A DNA stretch of 64,000 nt from an uncultured Hyphomonas sp. (GTDB lineage: Bacteria; Pseudomonadota; Alphaproteobacteria; Caulobacterales; Hyphomonadaceae): NCBI RefSeq assembly GCF_963976075.1, contig NZ_CAXBJH010000001.1; one strand, given 5' to 3'. Position 1 is the first letter of the stretch; each line of letters opens with the position of its first letter. The notes under the pieces were generated by a model. That model made no database searches, was not told where the DNA came from, and was given only the letters and a program-made list of their open reading frames with translations. This document shows positions 6,147-26,898 of the stretch, in pieces. The position numbers and the translations under genes were made by a program.

Positions 6147-7778
6147 TCAGGCCGTCTGGCGGTGGCCCGCCTCAGCCGCCGCCGCGCGGTCGGCCAGGAG
6201 GATATCGACCAGACTTGCGACCAGCGCACGCGGCCGGATCGGCTTTTCGATGATCGTGGTGAAGCCCGCCTGCTCGCAGGCCAGCCGCCGCTCGGGGCTG
6301 ACATCGGCGGTGACGGCAATGATCGGCGCCAGCGCATTTGGCCCGCGCGCGGCGCGAATGGCGGCCAGCACCTCGTCGCCACTTGCCCCCGGCAGGTGAA
6401 TGTCGGTCAGGATGGCCTGATAGGGATGGGTCGCGGCGCGGTCGATGGCGTCCTCGGCGGTCTGCACCGTGTCGACCTGCCAGCCGGCGGCCGACAGGGC
6501 ACGGGTCACGACCAGCGCGCTGACGGCATGGTCTTCGGCAAGCAGGATGCGGCCCAGCTCGAAGGCGCGCATGCGCGGCTTGGGCGGCGCGCCGGTAACG
6601 GCAAGGCGCGGACCCGCCCGTTCGACGGGCATGGTGACGGTAAAGATGGAGCCGCCTTCGGGATTGTCGGCAAGGGTGATCTCTCCCCCCAGCCGGCGGG
6701 CGAGCCCCTTGGCGATGGAGAGGCCAAGGCCAAAGCCGCCATGCGTGCCGGCGGTTGAGGGCCGGGCCTGTTCGAAGGCCTGGAACAGGCGCGCCTTGTC
6801 GGTATCGGTAATGCCACAGCCCGTGTCTTCCACCGTCATGCGCAGTTTCAGATTGCCGGCGGCCTCAAGGGTCGATAGCTCCACGCCGATATAGCCGCGC
6901 TCGGTGAATTTCAGCGCATTGCTCATCAGATTGAACAGGATCTGGCGGATGCGCATGGCATCGGCCTCAAGCCGCGCGACCGCGCCGCCCGCTACCTTGA
7001 TGCGCAGATCCAGACGCTTGCCGGCAATGCGGGACTGCCAGAGGTCCCGGGCGTCATTGGCGAATTCATGCAGGTCGAAGGGGGCATTGTTGACGGCCAG
7101 CTTGCCAGCCTCAAGGCGCGACAGGTCCAGCAGATCGGTCAGCAGCCGGTCGAGATGGTGCCCGCTTTCGGAAATCGTGCGCGCGAGGCGTTTCGGCTCG
7201 CCGCCATTCACGCTGTCCTGAAGCAGATCGGCCACGCCGAGAATGCCGGTCAGGGGCGTGCGGATTTCGTGGCCGACAAAGGCCAGGAAGCGCGCCTTTT
7301 CCTGATCGAAGGCCCCGGCGTCGTTCTTTGTCTTCTGCAAGCGTTTCTGGGCGACCTGCATCGCGCGGGCGCGGGCCGCATTTTCCAGCGCCACCGCAGA
7401 GAGCAGCGCAGACGGGCTGATCAGGCCGAGATATTTGCCCTCAGACAGGACGATCACCCCATCGGTCAGGGCCGAGGTCGAGCCGTCCGCCGCGAGTTTC
7501 GCGACCAGGCCCACCGGGGTGCCGGCCTCGCACATGACGGGCTGGTCGCGCATCAGGTCGGTGATGCGGGCCGCGCCGTTTGACTGGCGGCCACTGGGCG
7601 TGGCCAACGCTTCGATGACGGCGCGCCGCGTGACCATGCCAAGCGCGGCGCCATCGCTGACGATGGGCACGGCGAACTGGTCAGGATCGGCCAGCAATCG
7701 TGTAAACACCGCCGAGACGGTCACAGCTGTTGGAACAGGCCGCACGGCGACCGCAATGTCTTCTACGCGTACCGGCAT
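6147..7778 (-). CDS. hybrid histidine kinase with N-terminal CBS pair (CBS-HisKA-HATPase-REC)
   Basis: HEIRTPL H-box, NLMSNALKF, DTGCG, GFGLGL; REC domain LLAED..TDIHLP..KP. Start taken at the ATG at 7778 (ORF extends to 7850). Confidence 0.9.
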   Translation of the reverse strand: MPVRVEDIAVAVRPVPTAVTVSAVFTRLLADPDQFAVPIVSDGAALGMVTRRAVIEALATPSGRQSNGAARITDLMRDQPVMCEAGTPVGLVAKLAADGSTSALTDGVIVLSEGKYLGLISPSALLSAVALENAARARAMQVAQKRLQKTKNDAGAFDQEKARFLAFVGHEIRTPLTGILGVADLLQDSVNGGEPKRLARTISESGHHLDRLLTDLLDLSRLEAGKLAVNNAPFDLHEFANDARDLWQSRIAGKRLDLRIKVAGGAVARLEADAMRIRQILFNLMSNALKFTERGYIGVELSTLEAAGNLKLRMTVEDTGCGITDTDKARLFQAFEQARPSTAGTHGGFGLGLSIAKGLARRLGGEITLADNPEGGSIFTVTMPVERAGPRLAVTGAPPKPRMRAFELGRILLAEDHAVSALVVTRALSAAGWQVDTVQTAEDAIDRAATHPYQAILTDIHLPGASGDEVLAAIRAARGPNALAPIIAVTADVSPERRLACEQAGFTTIIEKPIRPRALVASLVDILLADRAAAAEAGHRQTA

Positions 7779-7927
7779 GGAGGCGGCGGTGTCCTTACAC
7801 AGGTTAAGAAGCCACCTTGCTTCATAAACCTTTACGCGCCGCAAACACATTCCTAACCAAAAATGAATGCCCGATCCCCTGAGAGGACCGGGCGTTCAAT
7901 TTGGTAACACTTCCGCGCGAAGTGCGC

Positions 7928-8527
7928 TTATTTGACGTCGCTGCGATGGTGCACGATCTGGCCGACCAGACCGTACTCGACAGCTTCGGCCGCGCTCATC
8001 CAGAAGTCACGATCGGTGTCTTCCTTGATCTTCGCGAGTGACTTGCCCGTGGCCTCCGCAAAGATGTTGTTGAGGCGTTCGCGCATCTTGATGATCTCGC
8101 GGGCCTGGATTTCAACATCCGTGGCCTGGCCGCCAACACCGCCCCGCGGTTCATGAAGCAGGAAGCGGGTGTTCGGCAGGCAGAAGCGATTTTCCTTCTT
8201 CGCCGCCGCATAGATCAGCGCGCCGGCCGAGGCGACCCAGCCGGTGCCGAGGATTTTCACGGGCGCTTCGACGAATTTGATCATGTCATGGATCATGTCG
8301 CCGCTTTCGACGTGGCCGCCGGGCGAAGACAGAACCAGCAGGATCGGCTCCTTGCTCTCGGCCGACAGGGCCAGCAGGCGCTGGCTGACGCGGCGGGCGG
8401 CATGGAAATCGATGCCGCCGGTCAGCAGGATGGTGCGGGCCTTGAACAGCGCTTCCTCAAGGAAGGCATTCGGCTCGGACTGGGGCTTTTCTTCTGTCTC
8501 GTCATCGAGGCGGTGCAAAAGGTTCAT
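7928..8527 (-). CDS. clpP: ATP-dependent Clp protease proteolytic subunit (stand-alone ClpP paralog)
   Basis: SSPGG, ASAG (Ser), LLHEP (His), DRD (Asp); no clpX adjacent. Confidence 0.9.
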   Translation of the reverse strand: MNLLHRLDDETEEKPQSEPNAFLEEALFKARTILLTGGIDFHAARRVSQRLLALSAESKEPILLVLSSPGGHVESGDMIHDMIKFVEAPVKILGTGWVASAGALIYAAAKKENRFCLPNTRFLLHEPRGGVGGQATDVEIQAREIIKMRERLNNIFAEATGKSLAKIKEDTDRDFWMSAAEAVEYGLVGQIVHHRSDVK

Positions 8528-21171: not shown

Positions 21172-21885
21172 TCAGGCCGCCTCTTCGACTTCCGCCGTCT
21201 TGGAGCTAGGGCGTGGATCCCGCAGCACATAGCCGCGGCCCCAGACCGTCTCGATATAGTGATTGCCGTTGGTGGCATTCTGCAGCTTCTTGCGCAGTTT
21301 GCAGATGAAGACGTCGATGATCTTCAGTTCCGGCTCGTCCATACCGCCATAAAGGTGGTTGAGGAACATTTCCTTGGTCAGCGTCGTGCCCTTCCGGAGG
21401 GAGAGCAGTTCGAACATCTGGTATTCCTTGCCGGTCAGGTGAACGCGCTCTTCGTCCACTTCCACCGTCTTGGCGTCCAGATTGACAATGATCTCACCCG
21501 TGCGGATCACGCTCTCGGCATGGCCTTTGGAGCGGCGCACAATGGCGGTGATGCGGGCGATCAGCTCGTCCTTGTTGAACGGCTTGGTGAGATAGTCATC
21601 GGCGCCGTAGCCGAGCGTCTTCACCTTCGCTTCAATGTCCGGATTGCCGGAAAGGATCATCACAGGCGTGTTCACACGGCCCATGCGCAGCTGTTTGAGC
21701 ACTTCGTACCCGGAAATATCAGGCAGGGAGAGGTCGAGCACGATCATGTCGTACTCATACACTTTGCCAAGATCCACGCCCTCTTCGCCGAGGTCGGTGG
21801 TGTAGATGTTGAAGCCTGCAGCCTTCAGCATCAACTCGATGGAACGAGCCACCGCACTATCGTCTTCAATCAGCAGGACGCGCAT
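21172..21885 (-). CDS. ctrA: cell-cycle master response regulator CtrA
   Basis: MRVLLIEDD...TTDLGEEG...[51 protein letters not shown]. Confidence 0.98.
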
Positions 21886-21897
21886 CTCTCGTCTCCC

Positions 21898-21975
21898 GAA
21901 TCATCATTACGACCAAGCTAGCCGCATTTCCTGTCAATGTGAATCCTACGAGCTGTTCCTTTAACGAAGGTTAAC
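21898..21975. promoter_or_regulatory. ctrA promoter region with two GANTC sites and a TTAA-N6-TTAAC box
   Basis: GAATC at 21898 and 21941; TTAA-CGAAGG-TTAAC at 21961-21975. Confidence 0.65.
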
Positions 21976-22020: not shown

Positions 22021-22860
22021 TTAATAGCCAAGATCAGCACCCTGGCGGCTACCAATCAGCATCTGTGAGATGGCGATTGCGTCCTGGATCGGCTGTGCCT
22101 GCTGGTCTGTGGAGATCAGCGTCTTCTGGCAGCGGATCGCATCACGCACCTTTGGATCCCGCATCACGGTCCCTGCCAGGTGAGGACGGAAGCCGAGGAA
22201 TGTCTGACAAGCACGGGCAATCGCTTCATAGGTGCGCTGACCTGCGGCCCGGGACTCGGCCTGGTTGATACAAATGACGGGTTCGACGTTCGGCGCATAG
22301 CCGCGCAGGACCTTGATGAAGGCATACGCATCCGTCATCGAGGTCGGCTCGTCGGTAATCACCATGAGCGCCTTGTCGGCAGCCCGTGCGAGACGCATGC
22401 AGTTCGCTTCGATCCCGGCGCCGAGATCGACCACCACTTGATCGTATTGCAGCGCCAAAGCAGACAGGCCCGCGGCGAGGCGGGCAACTTCTTCGGGGGG
22501 CAGTTCAGCCAGCGCACCGGAGCCGGATCGGCCCGGCAGCACGTCAAAGCCGCCATCCGCCGCGCCGCCATCAACTGGCGTCACCGCATCATCCAGTTCG
22601 ACCCAGCCGGCGATCACCGCAGCGAGGTCTGTTTCCGGTGCAATACCCAGCTGGACGTCGACATTGGCCAGGCCAAGGTCGCCATCCACCAGCAGCGTGC
22701 GCTTGCCGGCCTGTGCGAATGCGGAGGCCAGTGTGATGGCCATGAAGGTCTTGCCAACACCGCCCTTGCCACTGGCAACGGCAATGATCGAGGCTGGCGC
22801 GACGCGCGGAGTCGGGCGTTGGGACGGCCGTTCCTGCGATTTTCGAAGCATGAAGCTCAT
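22021..22860 (-). CDS. flhG: MinD/FlhG (FleN/MotR)-type ATPase
   Basis: Deviant Walker A GKGGVGKT, DGDLGLANVD, VVDLGAG, EPTS.TDAY; directly downstream of flhF. Confidence 0.8.
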   Translation of the reverse strand: MSFMLRKSQERPSQRPTPRVAPASIIAVASGKGGVGKTFMAITLASAFAQAGKRTLLVDGDLGLANVDVQLGIAPETDLAAVIAGWVELDDAVTPVDGGAADGGFDVLPGRSGSGALAELPPEEVARLAAGLSALALQYDQVVVDLGAGIEANCMRLARAADKALMVITDEPTSMTDAYAFIKVLRGYAPNVEPVICINQAESRAAGQRTYEAIARACQTFLGFRPHLAGTVMRDPKVRDAIRCQKTLISTDQQAQPIQDAIAISQMLIGSRQGADLGY

Positions 22861-22864
22861 AAGT

Positions 22865-23875
22865 CTACGCAGCTCCTTTCAGGGCGATGACATCGCCTGG
22901 GGCGTCTTCCATCAACAAGGCAGCCAACCGGGAAGGCGCTGCCGGCACCAATCCGCCGCCGATGAAAGGCGTAACGGCAAGGTGTGAGAAGGCGATGCCC
23001 GCCGAGGACAGGGCGGAGATGGCCCCTCCCCGTCTGCGGGCGATATCGAGTTTTGTGAGAATGGCGCGGCGAATGCCGGCGCGGGCAAAGATGCGGGCTG
23101 CATCTGCCTGATCTTCCGGATGGCCTTCGGCCGACATGACGAGCACGGGCTCGGCGCGCACGACCTGGATCAGGTCCTGCAGGCTGTCCATGTCGTCCTG
23201 GTCGAATGGATTGATCGAGGGCAGGTCGATGACGCAGCGATGTCCGGCGTCGCGCGCGGCGCGCAGCATGTCGAACAGGGCATCCGGCGTGGTGGCGGTG
23301 CGGATCTGGCCCCGCTCTTGCTCCAGATAGGCGGCCAGCTGTGCACCGCCGGCCGTGCCGTCGAGGTCAGCTGCCACCGGCAGGATGGCCGTGCGGGCCA
23401 CAGCCGCGCGACGGGTCAGCTTGGCCGCGGTTGCGGTACGGCCATGCCCCGGAGGGCCAATCAGGATGATATCTTTTTCCATACGCGCCGCGATGGGGTC
23501 GCAGGTCACGATGCGCTCAAGTCCGGCGGCAATCGATTCCTCTGGCGAATCGCCTGGAATGGCGTTCTGGCCAGCGCCTTCATGCGCCACTCGCTCGGCA
23601 AAGCGTTTGGGCGCACCATGCCATAGCAGGGCGTCGCGCACACGACTGTAGAGGGGGTTTTCGGATCCGCGGCCATGTCCGGCGCCACGCGCCTCTCGCA
23701 GGAACAGCGGCTCGCTTGGAACCACGCCGCCTCCGAGTTTGTCGGTTGCCGCGCGAACTTCCACCCCACCCTCGATCTCCCGTTCGGACAGGATGACGGC
23801 GTCAGCTCCCATTTCGGCAAAAATCATCGCTTTGGCGGCCTCAAGGGACTCCGCGGCGAACATCTTCATGCGCAT
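22865..23875 (-). CDS. flhF: FlhF-like SRP-family GTPase with degenerate G motifs
   Basis: FlhF-type N-terminus (F.A.S...A...I..EMG.DAVILS.R), GPPGHGRT, TKLD. Confidence 0.8.
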   Translation of the reverse strand: MRMKMFAAESLEAAKAMIFAEMGADAVILSEREIEGGVEVRAATDKLGGGVVPSEPLFLREARGAGHGRGSENPLYSRVRDALLWHGAPKRFAERVAHEGAGQNAIPGDSPEESIAAGLERIVTCDPIAARMEKDIILIGPPGHGRTATAAKLTRRAAVARTAILPVAADLDGTAGGAQLAAYLEQERGQIRTATTPDALFDMLRAARDAGHRCVIDLPSINPFDQDDMDSLQDLIQVVRAEPVLVMSAEGHPEDQADAARIFARAGIRRAILTKLDIARRRGGAISALSSAGIAFSHLAVTPFIGGGLVPAAPSRLAALLMEDAPGDVIALKGAA

Positions 23876-23955
23876 GTCTGCATGTTCCCTTTGTGTTGAT
23901 CACCCCGCCGATTGCCACCCCAATAGGCCGGCAGGACATGCTTCCGTTGGAGGCA

Positions 23956-23977
23956 GTTAACACCGTGAAAGGTTAAC
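23956..23977. promoter_or_regulatory. paired GTTAAC (CtrA half-site-like) elements upstream of flhF
   Basis: GTTAAC at 23956-23961 and 23972-23977 in the AT-rich fliN-flhF gap; spacing is non-canonical. Confidence 0.45.
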
Positions 23978-24041
23978 AACTTCCTTTCTTCCGTTAGGAA
24001 TTGGGCGGTGTTGCAGGGATTTAATGATATTTGCCTGAAGG

Positions 24042-24308
24042 TCAGGCAGCAGCGCGATCGTCGACGATTTCCGACAGAGTCACGCCCAATTGGCCATCGG
24101 CTATGACCAGCTTGCCCCGCGCCATCAGGCGATCCGACAGATAGATATCGACCGGCTCATCGGTATGGCGCTCCAGCGCGACGATGTCGCCTTCGGCCAT
24201 CGCCATCAATTCCTCGATCGGCATGCGCATTTCGCCGAGAACCACATCCACCCGGACAGGCACATCCATCAGGCTTTTCTTCAGCGCGGGATTGGCAGAA
24301 TCAGTCAT
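24042..24308 (-). CDS. fliN: flagellar C-ring protein FliN (SPOA domain)
   Basis: DVPVRV.VVLG..RM.I.EL.....GD.V.L.R...EPVDI......ARG..V...GQLGV.L.EI. Confidence 0.88.
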   Translation of the reverse strand: MTDSANPALKKSLMDVPVRVDVVLGEMRMPIEELMAMAEGDIVALERHTDEPVDIYLSDRLMARGKLVIADGQLGVTLSEIVDDRAAA

Positions 24309-24709
24309 GGCTTTCCTTCAGGTGCAACACGCTTCAGGGATTGCTGGGCATCGAACAGATCGCCCTGCCCGTCGAGAATGGTGCGGGCTGTAGCCCTTAT
24401 TAACGCATGGGCCCGGTCACTGAAACCCTCGTCATACGCGCAGGCCTCCAGATGGCCGGTCAGCGCCACCAGATTGGCGAGCGCCTCGTTGAGCGCATTC
24501 GTGACGCCTTGCAAGCGTTCGGTTTCGGCGCGGGCCTCTTCTGTCCGCACAGAGGCGGCGCCCTCAGCCCGGGCTTCGGCCAGCATGTCCAGCAATTCCG
24601 GCGTGGTCAGCTTCACCGGCGGGTCGATCTCGACCGGGGCCGGCGCGCTTGCGCTGAAATCGCTGCGGAAGTCGAAAGGGGTCACGGATTTGACGGCGCG
24701 ATGGATCAT
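24305..24709 (-). CDS. short FlbE/FliH-like protein (N-terminal part only)
   Basis: Position between fliG and fliN; N-terminal FDF motif and AEARAEG coiled coil; only 134 aa. Confidence 0.6.
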   Translation of the reverse strand: MIHRAVKSVTPFDFRSDFSASAPAPVEIDPPVKLTTPELLDMLAEARAEGAASVRTEEARAETERLQGVTNALNEALANLVALTGHLEACAYDEGFSDRAHALIRATARTILDGQGDLFDAQQSLKRVAPEGKP

Positions 24710-25635
24710 TCGACGAGTTCGTCCTCGTCTTGCGGGCGTCCGGCGCGAATGTCTCCGCGCTCGATCAGGGTGCGGGCCAGATCGACCAGTTCCATCCGGG
24801 CGGTCTCGATCTCGCTGCGACGCACCGCGCCGAGCATGTCGATTTCCTCGCGCAGCAATTCGCCCGCGCGCTGCGTCATGTTGCGGAAGAAGGCCGCACG
24901 GGTTTCCTCGCGCGCGCCCTTCAGCGCATAGGTAAGGCGCGTCCGGTCCGCAGCCGACAGCAGGGTCTGCAGGCCGCCGGCGTCCAGATGAGCGAGATCA
25001 TCAAAGGTGAACATCAGCGCACGGACCCGCTCGCCGGATCCCGGCACGGCGGATTCAAGCGCAGACAAGAGGCTCTGTTCGGCGCGGCTGTCCATCCGGT
25101 CGAAAATGCGGGCGACGCCTTCATGGCCCCCGGTGCGCGCAGCTGGCGCAGCGCTTGTCATCCAGGCCGACACGGAGGCTTCGAGCGCAGCGATGGCACT
25201 GGCATGGGCAGGCCCGAGATGCAGCAGGCGTTGCATCACATCGACGGCCACAGGTTTCTCAATGGCCTTAAGGAGGCGTGCAGAGGCCTTGCCGTCCAGA
25301 CGCGACAGCATCAGGGCAAGCGCCTGAGGGTGTTGTCCCTGTGCCAATTGCAACAGGTCGCGCGTTTCCAGGGCGGACACTTTCGCCCAGACCGGCGCCT
25401 CGGGCGTGGCCTGCGCGCCGGTGCGCTCATGCGCCTGTTTGTAGCTCGCCAGCGTGTCTGCTTCATCGCGAAGATCGTCGTCGAGCGCGTCCATTGCCGC
25501 CGACAAAGCGCGGGCTTCCTGCGGGCTCAATTCGTTCCAGACGGGCGCGGCTTCCGGACCAAGCGCACGCATCAGGCGAGCGGACTTGGCGAGGCCAGTC
25601 GCGCCGCTCGGACGGGCAATCGCCAGCACGCTCAT
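24706..25635 (-). CDS. fliG: flagellar motor switch protein FliG
   Basis: HPQ..AL.LS.L, MFTFDDL..LD, ALKGA, F.RNM.QRAGELLREEI...G.VR. Confidence 0.9.
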   Translation of the reverse strand: MSVLAIARPSGATGLAKSARLMRALGPEAAPVWNELSPQEARALSAAMDALDDDLRDEADTLASYKQAHERTGAQATPEAPVWAKVSALETRDLLQLAQGQHPQALALMLSRLDGKASARLLKAIEKPVAVDVMQRLLHLGPAHASAIAALEASVSAWMTSAAPAARTGGHEGVARIFDRMDSRAEQSLLSALESAVPGSGERVRALMFTFDDLAHLDAGGLQTLLSAADRTRLTYALKGAREETRAAFFRNMTQRAGELLREEIDMLGAVRRSEIETARMELVDLARTLIERGDIRAGRPQDEDELVE

Positions 25636-26315
25636 GCGGCGTCTCCTTCACCGCGCATCCAGCTGCGCAGGATCGAGGCTGTGCGGGCCGGATCCTTTCG
25701 GACCAGCGACGCGGCATCCGGGTCTGGCTGGCGAACAGGACGGGGCTTGGGCGCAGAGATGATATCTGCCGTATCGACGCGCGCGGGCTTTCGCTCGGCA
25801 GGCGCACCAGCGCCCTTCCCTTCCGGCGCGATCTCAAGCGGGGCGCGAAACCCGACCCAGGCCAGCAGGCCGCAGAGCAGCGCATAGAGACCAAGCTCTG
25901 TCCAGCCGGTCGCATCGGGGCGCCCGGCGACGCCGCGGGCAAAATCGGCCTGTTCAATGATCAATTGGTCACCGGCTTCCGGCGATAGCAGGATGGCCGA
26001 CGTTGCGAGGCGTTGCAGGGTGGGGGCGGTCTCGCTCGCATCAGAGGCCAGCAGGATCAGGACTGACCGGCCAGAGCCGCCAGTGCCCATCACAGACAGG
26101 CGGATGTTTCCCTTGCCGGCAACCGGTTCGAGGATGCCCATCAGGGAGGTCTCGACGGCTGAGCCCGGCACCCAGGCCTCAACCGGCTGGGTAAACAGGT
26201 CGCTGGCGCGCCAGCTGCCCAGCACGCCTGCGATCACAAGCGCAAACAGCGCGACTGCTCGTGTGGAGAGCATCGCGCTGCCTTGGAATTTCGCAAGCCT
26301 GTGGTCCATCAGCAA
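25632..26315 (-). CDS. miniature FliF-like MS-ring protein (227 aa)
   Basis: Two TM helices; ILEPVAGKGNIRLSV and LATSAILLSPEAGDQLII (RBM3-like halves); C-terminal DPARTASILRSW; overlaps the fliG start. Confidence 0.75.
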   Translation of the reverse strand: MLMDHRLAKFQGSAMLSTRAVALFALVIAGVLGSWRASDLFTQPVEAWVPGSAVETSLMGILEPVAGKGNIRLSVMGTGGSGRSVLILLASDASETAPTLQRLATSAILLSPEAGDQLIIEQADFARGVAGRPDATGWTELGLYALLCGLLAWVGFRAPLEIAPEGKGAGAPAERKPARVDTADIISAPKPRPVRQPDPDAASLVRKDPARTASILRSWMRGEGDAA

Positions 26316-26381
26316 CTCCCGGCGCCGGGTACATTTCCGGCATTCAGGACCATTGATAGGCGCTGGCGTGTAAATTTGTGT

Positions 26382-26403
26382 TTAACGGAAAGGATTCCGT
26401 TAA
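26382..26403. promoter_or_regulatory. palindromic operator upstream of mini-fliF
   Basis: TTAACGGAA-AGGA-TTCCGTTAA perfect 9-bp inverted repeat containing GATTC (26393-26397). Confidence 0.55.
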
Positions 26404-26415
26404 CCGTAAAGCGTC

Positions 26416-26688
26416 CTAGCGGCGATATTGCTGCAGACGGGTGGTCCGCAGACCCTTGGTTCCGTGACGGGAGTAAAGCTTCTCCCAGGTCTCGAATTCT
26501 TCATCGCTCAGGCTATAGCGATCGCAGGCTGCCTTGCGGGTCAGAAGACCGCCGGAAACTGCTGCAACGACTTCAGCCTTGCGACGGGTAACCCAACGGG
26601 AAATGTTGGGTGACGGAAGATCCGCCAGGGTCAGCATCTGGCCATCCGGGCCCGGGACGCTGAGGTTACGTGCATTGTGCTGTTCCAT
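26416..26688 (-). CDS. sciP: CtrA inhibitor SciP (DUF1153)
   Basis: GPDG..LTLADLP.P...RWV.RRKAEVVAAV.GGLL...AC.RY.LS.EEF..W......G..GLR.TR.Q.YR. Confidence 0.95.
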   Translation of the reverse strand: MEQHNARNLSVPGPDGQMLTLADLPSPNISRWVTRRKAEVVAAVSGGLLTRKAACDRYSLSDEEFETWEKLYSRHGTKGLRTTRLQQYRR

Positions 26689-26898
26689 GTCCACACCATT
26701 CTTGTTGTCGTGACAGGACTGCCCGGCTTCTCCGGGCGCCATGTCGTCCAACATACAGTGTGGGTTTTAAGCCGAGGCATAAGCGACCTCGTCAGTTTCA
26801 CTCCCCGGGTTAGAAGAATGTTTGTAAAGCTGTACCGGGCCGGGACAATCACCGGGAATCAGCTGGATTCATTACAGAAAATATAATTTACGCCCGGA

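Follow-up and report, generated by a model that had tools for sequence, protein, structure and literature searches.

A putative remnant of the early flagellar locus in Hyphomonas, keeping rotor and placement genes and lacking export and rod parts

What does a set of flagellar rotor genes do where no rod, hook or export gene accompanies it? The question is raised by a 64,000-nucleotide stretch of DNA (the window) from an uncultured Hyphomonas sp. of the Hyphomonadaceae (RefSeq assembly GCF_963976075.1, contig NZ_CAXBJH010000001.1). In this window, short relatives of fliG and fliN lie together with two further genes, X and Y, between the CtrA inhibitor gene sciP and the genes flhF, flhG and ctrA; we refer to X, fliG, Y, fliN, flhF and flhG as the module. 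Profile and gene-order comparisons indicate that the cluster was inherited vertically and is what is left of the ancestral early (class II) flagellar locus once the export- and rod-serving parts had gone: the cytoplasmic-face rotor and the site-selection network. In the literature that could be searched, we found no account of the module. Our preferred reading, to which we give a probability of roughly 55%, is that the products form a polar platform tied to the swarmer/bud-pole programme; it would seed the site of the flagellum or mark it, or else would capture stators of the MotAB type.

Gene order and protein anatomy of the module

The genes follow one another on the minus strand in the order sciP, X, fliG, Y, fliN, a spacer, flhF, flhG, ctrA and recR.

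sciP: 26416..26754, minus strand; DUF1153 CtrA inhibitor, upstream boundary of the locus
X ('mini-FliF'): 25632..26315, minus strand; 227 aa (gene callers start at 26309, giving 225 aa)
FliG-like, short: 24706..25635, minus strand; 309 aa
Y (FlbE/FliH N-terminal part): 24305..24709, minus strand; 134 aa
FliN-like: 24042..24308, minus strand; 88 aa
fliN-flhF spacer: 23876..24041, no strand; exactly 166 bp, in place of the flbD and flhA of canonical loci
FlhF-like SRP-type (signal recognition particle) protein: 22865..23875, minus strand; degenerate GTPase motifs
FlhG/MotR (MinD-type ATPase): 22021..22860, minus strand; Walker A intact
ctrA: 21172..21885, minus strand; downstream boundary of the locus

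On the coding strand, 4-bp ATGA start/stop overlaps join X to fliG (GCATGAGC), fliG to Y (GAATGATC) and Y to fliN (CCATGACT). The initial annotation had proposed such coupling for fliG, an flbE-like gene and fliN, together with a 166-bp interval before flhF and the absence of flbD and flhA. The junctions confirm the coupling and add X/fliG to it, the interval is correct to the base pair, and the absence of flbD and flhA holds against the canonical alphaproteobacterial locus.

X has a transmembrane helix (TM1), one periplasmic domain resembling a ring-building motif (RBM) and a second transmembrane helix (TM2). After TM2, a variable linker leads to the C-terminal helix, KDPARTASILRSWM, which is conserved and corresponds to the tail by which FliF binds FliG. 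Its periplasmic domain corresponds to the RBM3 core without the beta-collar. Aligning 21 X orthologues with 41 canonical FliF sequences by hhalign gave a probability of 98.5% (E 3.3e-15), with X 53-229 matched to FliF profile columns 264-583 of 587. The alignment covers both flanks of RBM3, TM2 and the tail, where X DPARTASILRSWM faces FliF HPEEAxAIIRTWL, with a gap of some 50-80 profile columns where the collar would be. X has neither RBM1 nor RBM2; the Parvibaculum FliF carries them as PF01514 at 39-211. Neither Pfam nor NCBIfam gave a match for X, the Pfam families YscJ_FliF (RBM1-RBM2) and YscJ_FliF_C (RBM3 with collar) included, and orthologues of X are labelled FliF/YscJ or 'M-ring C-terminal domain' by JGI and UniRef. 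The AlphaFold2 (AF2) model of X is poor, with a predicted local distance difference test score (pLDDT) of 43; its secondary structure, with helices at 15-42 and 135-157, reads TM-a-b-b-a-b-TM-helix, the pattern of one ring-building motif.

The tail motif of X is kept in 20 of the 21 loci. In the most divergent lineage (L090:9628-10008), X has shrunk to 126 aa, with two transmembrane helices, almost no periplasmic loop and the tail. Because the tail persists there without the periplasmic domain, the constant feature of X would be a membrane anchor plus a FliG-binding tail, and the RBM domain would be dispensable for the role of X in L090. In H. oceanitis SCH89 (L018:9328-10001), the X frame seems to change ahead of the conserved C-terminal motif, which lies in a different frame; either the draft assembly is wrong there or the strain has a real frameshift. 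The name 'mini-FliF', used in the initial annotation, is supported by a profile match that runs from RBM3 to the C-tail only. With its two transmembrane helices and tail, and lacking the FliF-defining RBM1/2 and collar, X is best called FliF-derived on the basis of these profiles.

The short FliG differs from the canonical alphaproteobacterial FliG in a single large feature, a deletion of ~28 residues in the second half of the N-domain (hhalign, E 3.5e-67), and its M and C domains are full, torque helix included. Pfam recognises FliG_C (6.5e-33), FliG_M (2.7e-10) and FliG_N (1.9e-07), the last only over profile positions 3-52 of 104. The FliG equivalog TIGR00207 scores 147.9 bits, below its cut-off of 226.7, and matches residues 83-307 only; many family members are labelled 'FliG C-terminal domain-containing protein' by NCBI. 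Sequence matches of the window FliG in the PDB are FliG chains (1e-30). The AF2 model has a pLDDT of 72.5, with the N-domain modelled in part (residues 53-79 below pLDDT 50). All of the top 20 Foldseek hits of this model are FliG, including FliM-bound M-domains. The C-domain reaches target-normalised template-modelling scores (TMt) of 0.89-0.93 with a root-mean-square deviation (rmsd) of 1.2-1.5 Å, and the M-domain a TMt of 0.81-0.88; the rmsd to the MotAB-bound FliG_C of 8ucs_H is 1.5 Å.

An exhaustive profile-free search of 1.84 billion representatives returned ~35 representative clusters of short FliG. These proteins are 297-323 aa long (one has 346 aa) and align end to end at 33-59% identity, whereas canonical FliGs (330-350 aa) align with the short FliG only from residue ~80 on. 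The short FliGs form a clade separate from canonical FliGs.

We notice that the torque helix has been maintained. Its peptide, NMTQRAGELLREEIDMLGAVRR, occupies FliG residues 252-273 and aligns with the T. maritima torque helix NMSKRAAALLKDELEYMGPVR. Five charged residues of the window FliG, K239/R256/E263/E264/R272, match what we take to be the stator-contact charges K264/R281/D288/D289/R297 of E. coli/Salmonella described by Lloyd and Blair. The earlier claim that these charges are retained holds for the window, and each is conserved in 162-175 of 175 distinct short-FliG family members, counted as follows.

E. coli K264, window K239: K in 169/175
E. coli R281, window R256: R in 174/175
E. coli D288, window E263: acidic in 164/175
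E. coli D289, window E264: acidic in 175/175
E. coli R297, window R272: R in 162/175

In the same 175 members, the MFxF motif, the second hinge glycine and the Arg of the EHPQR motif are also conserved. EHPQR reads QHPQ...R in the window. Across the family, its first position is E in 160/175, the H position is occupied by H (93), R (47) or S (30) and the P position by P (133) or A (41); the Arg (R136) is R in 169/175, and the His position is not conserved. The window protein passes as a FliG on fold, domains and functional residues; it fails on the equivalog score, and its N-domain is shortened.

Y matches only the front part of FlbE. Against the positional FlbE set, one hhalign run aligned Y 1-115 with FlbE 1-122 of 258 (probability 95.5%, E 1.6e-8), and a second aligned Y 7-78 with FlbE 5-82 of 225 (92.7%). 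Both proteins carry an N-terminal aromatic motif, PFxFxSDF in Y and kFtFDtxF in FlbE, followed by a helical coiled-coil region. The motif of the window Y is PFDFRSDF, of which F14, D17 and F18 are invariant in 14 orthologues. The best PDB match of the FlbE profile is 5b0o_E (E 0.013, columns 71-192), the Salmonella FliH C-fragment crystallised with FliI. The Y alignment stops at FlbE column 82-122, and the FliI-binding C-domain is not present in Y. An invariant DGQGDLF motif at residues 113-119 ends the helical region of Y and has no counterpart in canonical FlbE/FliH. Neither Pfam nor NCBIfam gave a match for Y, and a search of the PDB with its profile retrieved designed helical bundles only. 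Two public assemblies of a related organism (X17, X18) have a 12-bp in-frame deletion within Y at window position 24479; the runs X10, X13, X17 and X18 are DNA assemblies, not RNA. The N-terminal-only profile match supports the earlier description of a 134-aa FlbE/FliH cut to its N-terminus with the aromatic motif, and we would call Y FliH-derived, lacking the domain that defines FliH.

FliN comprises the SpoA/FliMN_C domain only (Pfam FliMN_C 8.3e-23). It scores 87.5 bits with TIGR02480, above the cut-off of 84.05, has an N-terminus ~30 residues shorter than that of the 117-aa Parvibaculum FliN, and is 67-97% identical across the family.

FlhF matches Pfam SRP54 (PF00448, 7.6e-13), and TIGR03499 aligns with residues 1-46 (the FlhF N-terminus) and the G domain at 65 bits, below the cut-off of 174. 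In the window protein, the P-loop reads GPPGHGRT, with Lys replaced by Arg, and the G3 motif DTAG is replaced by DLPS. The same losses occur in the window, L006-L025, L030 and L090: all 15 aligned Hyphomonadaceae-type FlhF proteins and that of the divergent L090 have GHGRT and DLP[AS]/DMPA/DIPA, as against 29 canonical alphaproteobacterial FlhF proteins, which keep GxGK[TS] and mostly DTxG. FlhF is otherwise 63-95% conserved. Since the P-loop Lys and DTAG are lost, the Hyphomonadaceae-type FlhF probably binds nucleotide poorly or cannot hydrolyse it, and would be a conserved pseudo-GTPase beside an intact FlhG. FlhG itself matches CbiA/ParA/AAA_31 in Pfam, conserves the deviant Walker A SGKGGVGKT with its signature lysine as well as DGDLGLAN, and is 73-98% identical across the family. 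Its H. neptunium counterpart is HNE_0943, annotated 'motR'.

Descent from the canonical locus and distribution

Where did this arrangement come from? Our genome scan was pattern-limited, and the locus counts and taxon range given here are those among the matches listed. The scan contained at least ~60 canonical alphaproteobacterial fliG loci. In at least ~45 of these, sciP lies ~2 kb upstream of fliG, and the intervening gene encodes a FliF of 537-594 aa. Taxa with this layout include Parvibaculum, Rhizomicrobium, Sneathiella, Kiloniella, Iodidimonas, Pedomonas, Zavarzinia, Fodinicurvata, Pleomorphomonas and Devosia. Downstream of fliG (337-355 aa), the canonical loci carry an FlbE/FliH-like gene (203-244 aa) and then fliN. 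Within the 10-kb flank, flhF and flhG occur some 3.5-4.5 kb past fliN in about half of the canonical loci, and ctrA follows a few kb further in about a dozen. In Parvibaculum sedimenti (L047), a Pfam scan showed that the 3.6-kb gap between fliN and flhF is made up of flbD (a sigma-54 activator) and flhA (FHIPEP). The adjacency of sciP (CC_0903) and fliF (CC_0905) is the same in Caulobacter (tables of Leicht et al., 2020; PMC7200025).

These layouts give the ancestral order as sciP-fliF-fliG-flbE/fliH-fliN-flbD-flhA-flhF-flhG...ctrA, and the cluster in the window is its positional counterpart after reduction. Relative to that order, X stands in the place of fliF and Y in that of flbE, FliG and FliN are shortened, 166 bp replace flbD and flhA, and ctrA has been drawn to 135 bp behind flhG. 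The parts gone are FlhA, FlbD, the RBM1/RBM2 and beta-collar of FliF, and the FliI-binding half of FliH. The initial annotation had suggested that export parts were shed while rotor-stator contacts were kept, and the structural comparison bears this out.

The canonical class II locus (Caulobacter fliF-fliG-flbE-fliN-flbD/flhA by sciP; its full sciP...ctrA form is seen in Parvibaculum, Rhizomicrobium, Sneathiella, Kiloniella and others) shares its order, flanks and translational coupling with the module. X, FliG, Y and FliN are the positional counterparts of class II FliF, FliG, FlbE and FliN, with profile-level homology. They differ from these in size: X has 227 aa against ~560 in FliF, Y has 134 against ~215 in FlbE, and FliG and FliN are ~28 and ~30 residues shorter, respectively. 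In addition, flbD and flhA are deleted, and the GTPase motifs of FlhF are degenerate.

A cluster identical to that of the window is found on long marine metagenome scaffolds (TARA and others), and an NCBI 'Hyphomonas sp.' protein shares 100% identity with X. Among the matches listed, the closest species representative is Hyphomonas sp. L-53-1-40 (FliG identity 87%). The ctrA context had first suggested an origin in Sphingomonadales/Erythrobacter, which was rejected because the nearest named matches belong to Hyphomonas. H. chukchiensis, H. oceanitis, Henriciella species and Hyphomonadaceae metagenome-assembled genomes (MAGs) carry the same module with mostly the same flanks; the members of the short-FliG clade named so far are only Hyphomonas, Henriciella and related MAGs. 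The most divergent clade members (FliG identity 30-35%) keep sciP-X-fliG-Y-fliN, and L090 keeps flhF-flhG-ctrA as well. Among these most divergent members, we found none that was intermediate in having either a full FliF or FlhA. In one Hyphomonadaceae MAG (L023:11424-14383), two same-strand genes are inserted between Y and fliN, encoding a 416-aa protein with a C-terminal OmpA (peptidoglycan-binding, MotB-like) domain and a 562-aa coiled-coil protein. This insert might point to a stator-like or anchor component linked to the module.

Meanwhile, we observed sciP directly upstream of fliF and ctrA a few kb past flhF/flhG in many alphaproteobacteria outside the Hyphomonadaceae (L029, L038, L043, L044, L047, L049, L055, L063-L065, L068, L075, L082, L083, L086 and L088). 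Such bracketing of an early flagellar locus by sciP and ctrA is not spelled out in the literature examined. Because the two genes bracket the ancestral early flagellar locus in so many alphaproteobacteria, the arrangement supports the idea that motility control may have been the original job of CtrA.

A second flagellar set, selection and regulation

Is the module the only flagellar set of its host? For H. neptunium, the question can be followed in the gene lists of the supplementary tables of Leicht et al. (2020; PMC7200025). These place a flagellar cluster in the direct CtrA regulon, with HNE_0241 fliL, HNE_0242 fliF, HNE_0243 hypothetical, HNE_0244 putative FliN, HNE_0245 fliP, HNE_0246 a COG1536 'motor switch' protein of ~362 aa, HNE_0247 flgI and HNE_0248 flgL, and further along HNE_0251 motB, HNE_0268 fliI and HNE_0269 flgB. 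The product of HNE_0242 has 32% identity to Caulobacter FliF at 70% coverage, and the gene spans 2.2 kb with HNE_0243. Apart from this cluster lie HNE_1390 sciP, HNE_1391 hypothetical, HNE_1392 'putative FliG' and HNE_1393 hypothetical, and apart again HNE_0942 'FlhF homolog', HNE_0943 'MotR' and HNE_0944 CtrA. The module orthologues are HNE_1391-1394 and HNE_0942-0943. H. neptunium therefore has another fliN and a COG1536 FliG beside a full-length fliF in a separate cluster, and the module would be a second, partial set in the genus. Neither finding that was to count against the initial annotation is therefore seen: the torque residues are conserved among the orthologues, and in H. neptunium the fliG and fliN of the module have counterparts elsewhere.

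The order of the H. neptunium flagellar cluster (HNE_0239-0251; fliL, fliF, hypothetical, fliN, fliP, flgI, flgL ... motB) resembles the fla1 type of Rhodobacterales; unlike fla1, it has a COG1536 FliG after fliP. According to a 2025 Phaeobacter paper, fla1 is absent outside Rhodobacterales, and the only fliG of Phaeobacter sits outside the flagellar cluster and is required for motility. We considered whether this Phaeobacter fliG is the same module and rejected the idea: it is solitary, among purB, a hypothetical gene and an acyltransferase gene, without the X, Y and FliN neighbours that the module FliG has, and is not beside ctrA. In R. capsulatus, sciP and ctrA are presumably adjacent.

The ratio of nonsynonymous to synonymous substitution rates (dN/dS), computed between the window and Hyphomonas sp. 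L-53-1-40, is 0.05 for X, 0.07 for FliG, 0.14 for Y, 0.02 for FliN, 0.04 for FlhF and 0.02 for FlhG. In the flanks, APH, proC, recR and ybjN range over 0.01-0.06, and a TetR-like gene has 0.13. All six module genes are under purifying selection, like the flanking housekeeping genes. Because dN/dS is low, the unit is retained in divergent members and the indel is in-frame, the module appears functional and not decaying. Fragments of module genes also occur in low-depth marine metatranscriptome contigs, which is weak evidence of RNA.

In the window, sciP (Pfam DUF1153 4.2e-37; NCBIfam CtrAInhibSciP 127.9 bits, cut-off 100) and ctrA (NCBIfam CtrA 408.9 bits, cut-off 350) are firmly assigned. sciP adjoins the module in every genome examined and stands upstream of fliF or X in most loci. 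The flanks further hold the housekeeping genes lgt, proC, an APH-type kinase gene, a TonB-dependent receptor gene, rpoD, dnaG, carA and clpP. The annotated parts of the 64-kb window showed no rod, hook, export gate, export ATPase or stator gene and no other flagellar gene; the cluster itself likewise has none of the rod, hook, export and stator genes. A hybrid histidine kinase (CBS, HisKA/HATPase, receiver) adjoins clpP at 6147-7850 and 7928-8527.

Directly past the sciP stop codon, a perfect palindrome with 9-bp arms, TTAACGGAA-N4-TTCCGTTAA, lies at 26382-26403. It is overlapped by a CtrA-type box (TTAA-N7-TTTA, one mismatch) at 26371-26385, upstream of X; a second one-mismatch box lies in the ctrA promoter at 21960-21974. 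CtrA boxes in the window are one-mismatch matches only (5 against 1.9 expected) and are not enriched over chance. In H. neptunium, chromatin immunoprecipitation (ChIP) gives CtrA peaks at sciP and ctrA and a further one upstream of the FlhF homologue (PMC7200025). The 166-bp fliN-flhF spacer carries two TTAAC half-sites (23956-23976). Unrelated genes are inserted between fliN and flhF in Henriciella-type genomes, and in H. neptunium and some other genomes the sciP-X-fliG-Y-fliN unit is apart from the flhF-flhG-ctrA unit. Because the two units are separated or interrupted by insertions in other genomes, the module comprises two transcription units with their boundary at the spacer.

Proposed assembly, alternatives and biological meaning

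What could such a set of proteins build? From the anatomy, descent, conservation and purifying selection described above, we infer an assembly, a location and a role. X would anchor short FliG, as a ring or a patch, to the inner membrane, its tail contacting the shortened FliG N-domain, while the canonical M and C domains of FliG would still present the five stator-contact charges. The lower layer would consist of FliN and the N-terminal, FliN-binding/coiled-coil part of FliH. A GTPase-dead (locked) FlhF and the intact FlhG ATPase may set the polar position. The product would be a polar complex resembling the membrane/supramembrane (MS) and cytoplasmic (C) rings, without axle or export, beside the ordinary flagellum of the separate cluster documented in H. 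neptunium. Unable to export or to hold a rod, it would not be a secretion-competent basal body.

Several points weigh against the polar platform. The near-perfect conservation of the stator contacts is what a working torque generator would show, and a passive scaffold would account for it less well than a real motor part or an independent rotor. Neither a FliM gene nor a stator gene is linked to the module. Ring building by X does not seem universal, as L090 lacks the periplasmic domain, and the AF2 model of X is poor. The complete flagellar cluster is documented in the published H. neptunium tables alone, not in the window's genome. Expression data for HNE_1391-1393 are weak: the genes are up about 2-fold in a divJ deletion, with p 0.1-0.23 (Leicht et al., 2020; PMC7200025). 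Since the torque charges are conserved, two rivals of the polar platform, an ordinary motor part and an independent rotor, stay alive.

The stronger of the two, which we regard as unlikely and yet a serious contender, holds that the genes serve in the ordinary flagellum as functional parts. In the motor built from the separate cluster, short FliG and FliN would act together with FlhF and FlhG, as the main rotor or as alternative, exchangeable subunits, and X and Y would be accessory assembly factors. It is a live rival because the retained set is the known flagellar site-selection/initiation network. The conserved torque charges, MFxF, hinge glycine and Arg of EHPQR agree with it, as do the canonical folds of the M and C domains, including the match to the FliM-binding M domain. 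The motility-essential fliG of Phaeobacter is also far from its flagellar cluster, though without the X/Y/FliN neighbours, and the H. neptunium tables searched list no such genes other than FlhF and MotR beside ctrA. On the other hand, the H. neptunium flagellar cluster has its own canonical-length COG1536 FliG, FliN and full FliF, and the FliG-binding tail of X would compete with that FliF. Moreover, the FliG N-domain is shortened, and X and FliG evolve fast within the cluster, which is compatible with a private pair.

A non-flagellar job of the module is plausible. In its boldest form, which we consider improbable, budding Hyphomonadaceae would possess a second flagellum-derived machine, a membrane-anchored FliG/FliN ring without axle or secretion channel, placed by a GTPase-dead FlhF and FlhG and still engaging MotAB-type stators by way of its torque-helix charges. 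If true, this would be a new kind of polar device, rotary or able to capture stators; it might serve as a mechanosensor, for instance, or as a cell-cycle/polarity signalling hub tied to sciP and ctrA. The injectisome, in which export stayed and rotation was lost, would be its mirror image. The version in which an independent axle-less rotor uses a spare MotAB-like stator for a non-flagellar job, as a polar rotary or mechanosensory signalling device, seems to us quite improbable. The stator-contact charges fit it, and export and rod parts are wholly lost while selection is still strong. In H. neptunium there are also a further MotB-type gene of COG1360, HNE_0894, and an orphan FliM-type gene of COG1868, HNE_0504 (PMC7200025), and one MAG (L023) carries the OmpA-domain and coiled-coil proteins inside the operon. 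However, neither the window nor most loci have a linked stator gene, there is no known precedent, and the evidence is all indirect; a two-helix anchor without a periplasmic ring, as in L090, would be a poor bearing.

That the module is a decaying, functionless relic of a replaced flagellar system is very improbable: the massive domain and gene loss relative to the ancestral locus and the possibly broken X frame in H. oceanitis SCH89 (L018) would suit it, but the pseudogene idea is rejected by dN/dS values of 0.02-0.14, and ORFs (open reading frames) of constant length are intact across lineages down to 30% identity, the invariant short motifs at the ends of X and Y and the translational coupling are kept, and indels are in-frame only.

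Returning to the polar platform, two known systems offer comparisons. Borrelia burgdorferi, like H. neptunium, has two FliG homologues per genome (FliG1/FliG2), of which one is required for building the flagellum and the other is dispensable for assembly and asymmetrically (polarly) localised (PMC7225975). The closest precedent for an extra polar FliG is FliG1. It is a lone extra FliG in the same flagellar motors, whereas the extra FliG of the module comes with FliF-, FliH- and FliN-derived partners and with FlhF and FlhG. The second comparison is polar placement by FlhF/FlhG in Vibrio, Pseudomonas, Shewanella and Campylobacter. Work on polar flagellates describes a network in which FliF reaches the pole through FlhF, FliG joins by way of FliF, and FlhG works against FlhF (PMC11236974; PMC7226244; PMC12826062). 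The module retains the same early network proteins. FlhG also binds and acts on C-ring proteins. Unlike in these systems, the FliF partner of the module cannot build an MS ring housing an export gate, and its FlhF is without the P-loop lysine and DTAG; because of this loss, the GTP-hydrolysis switch normally driven by FlhG is probably gone.

Reduced flagellar sets include Buchnera basal bodies, the chlamydial FliF/FlhA/FliI orphans and the injectisome proteins SctJ/SctQ/SctL. To our knowledge, other reduced flagellar systems keep the export machine and lose rotation or the filament. Compared with the injectisome- and Buchnera-type derivatives, the module is the reverse: rotor, switch and placement are kept and export is lost. 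A derivative that keeps only the rotor/switch/placement layer, selected beside a complete flagellum, would be a different evolutionary outcome. Read this way, the locus may offer a natural dissection of the self-sufficient contacts of FliF, FliG, FliH and FliN, in which the FliF tail serves as a FliG holder, the FliH N-terminus is retained with FliN, and FlhF is kept without its GTPase motifs. Through its orthologues in H. neptunium, a model budding bacterium, it draws attention to a so far unstudied polar complex.

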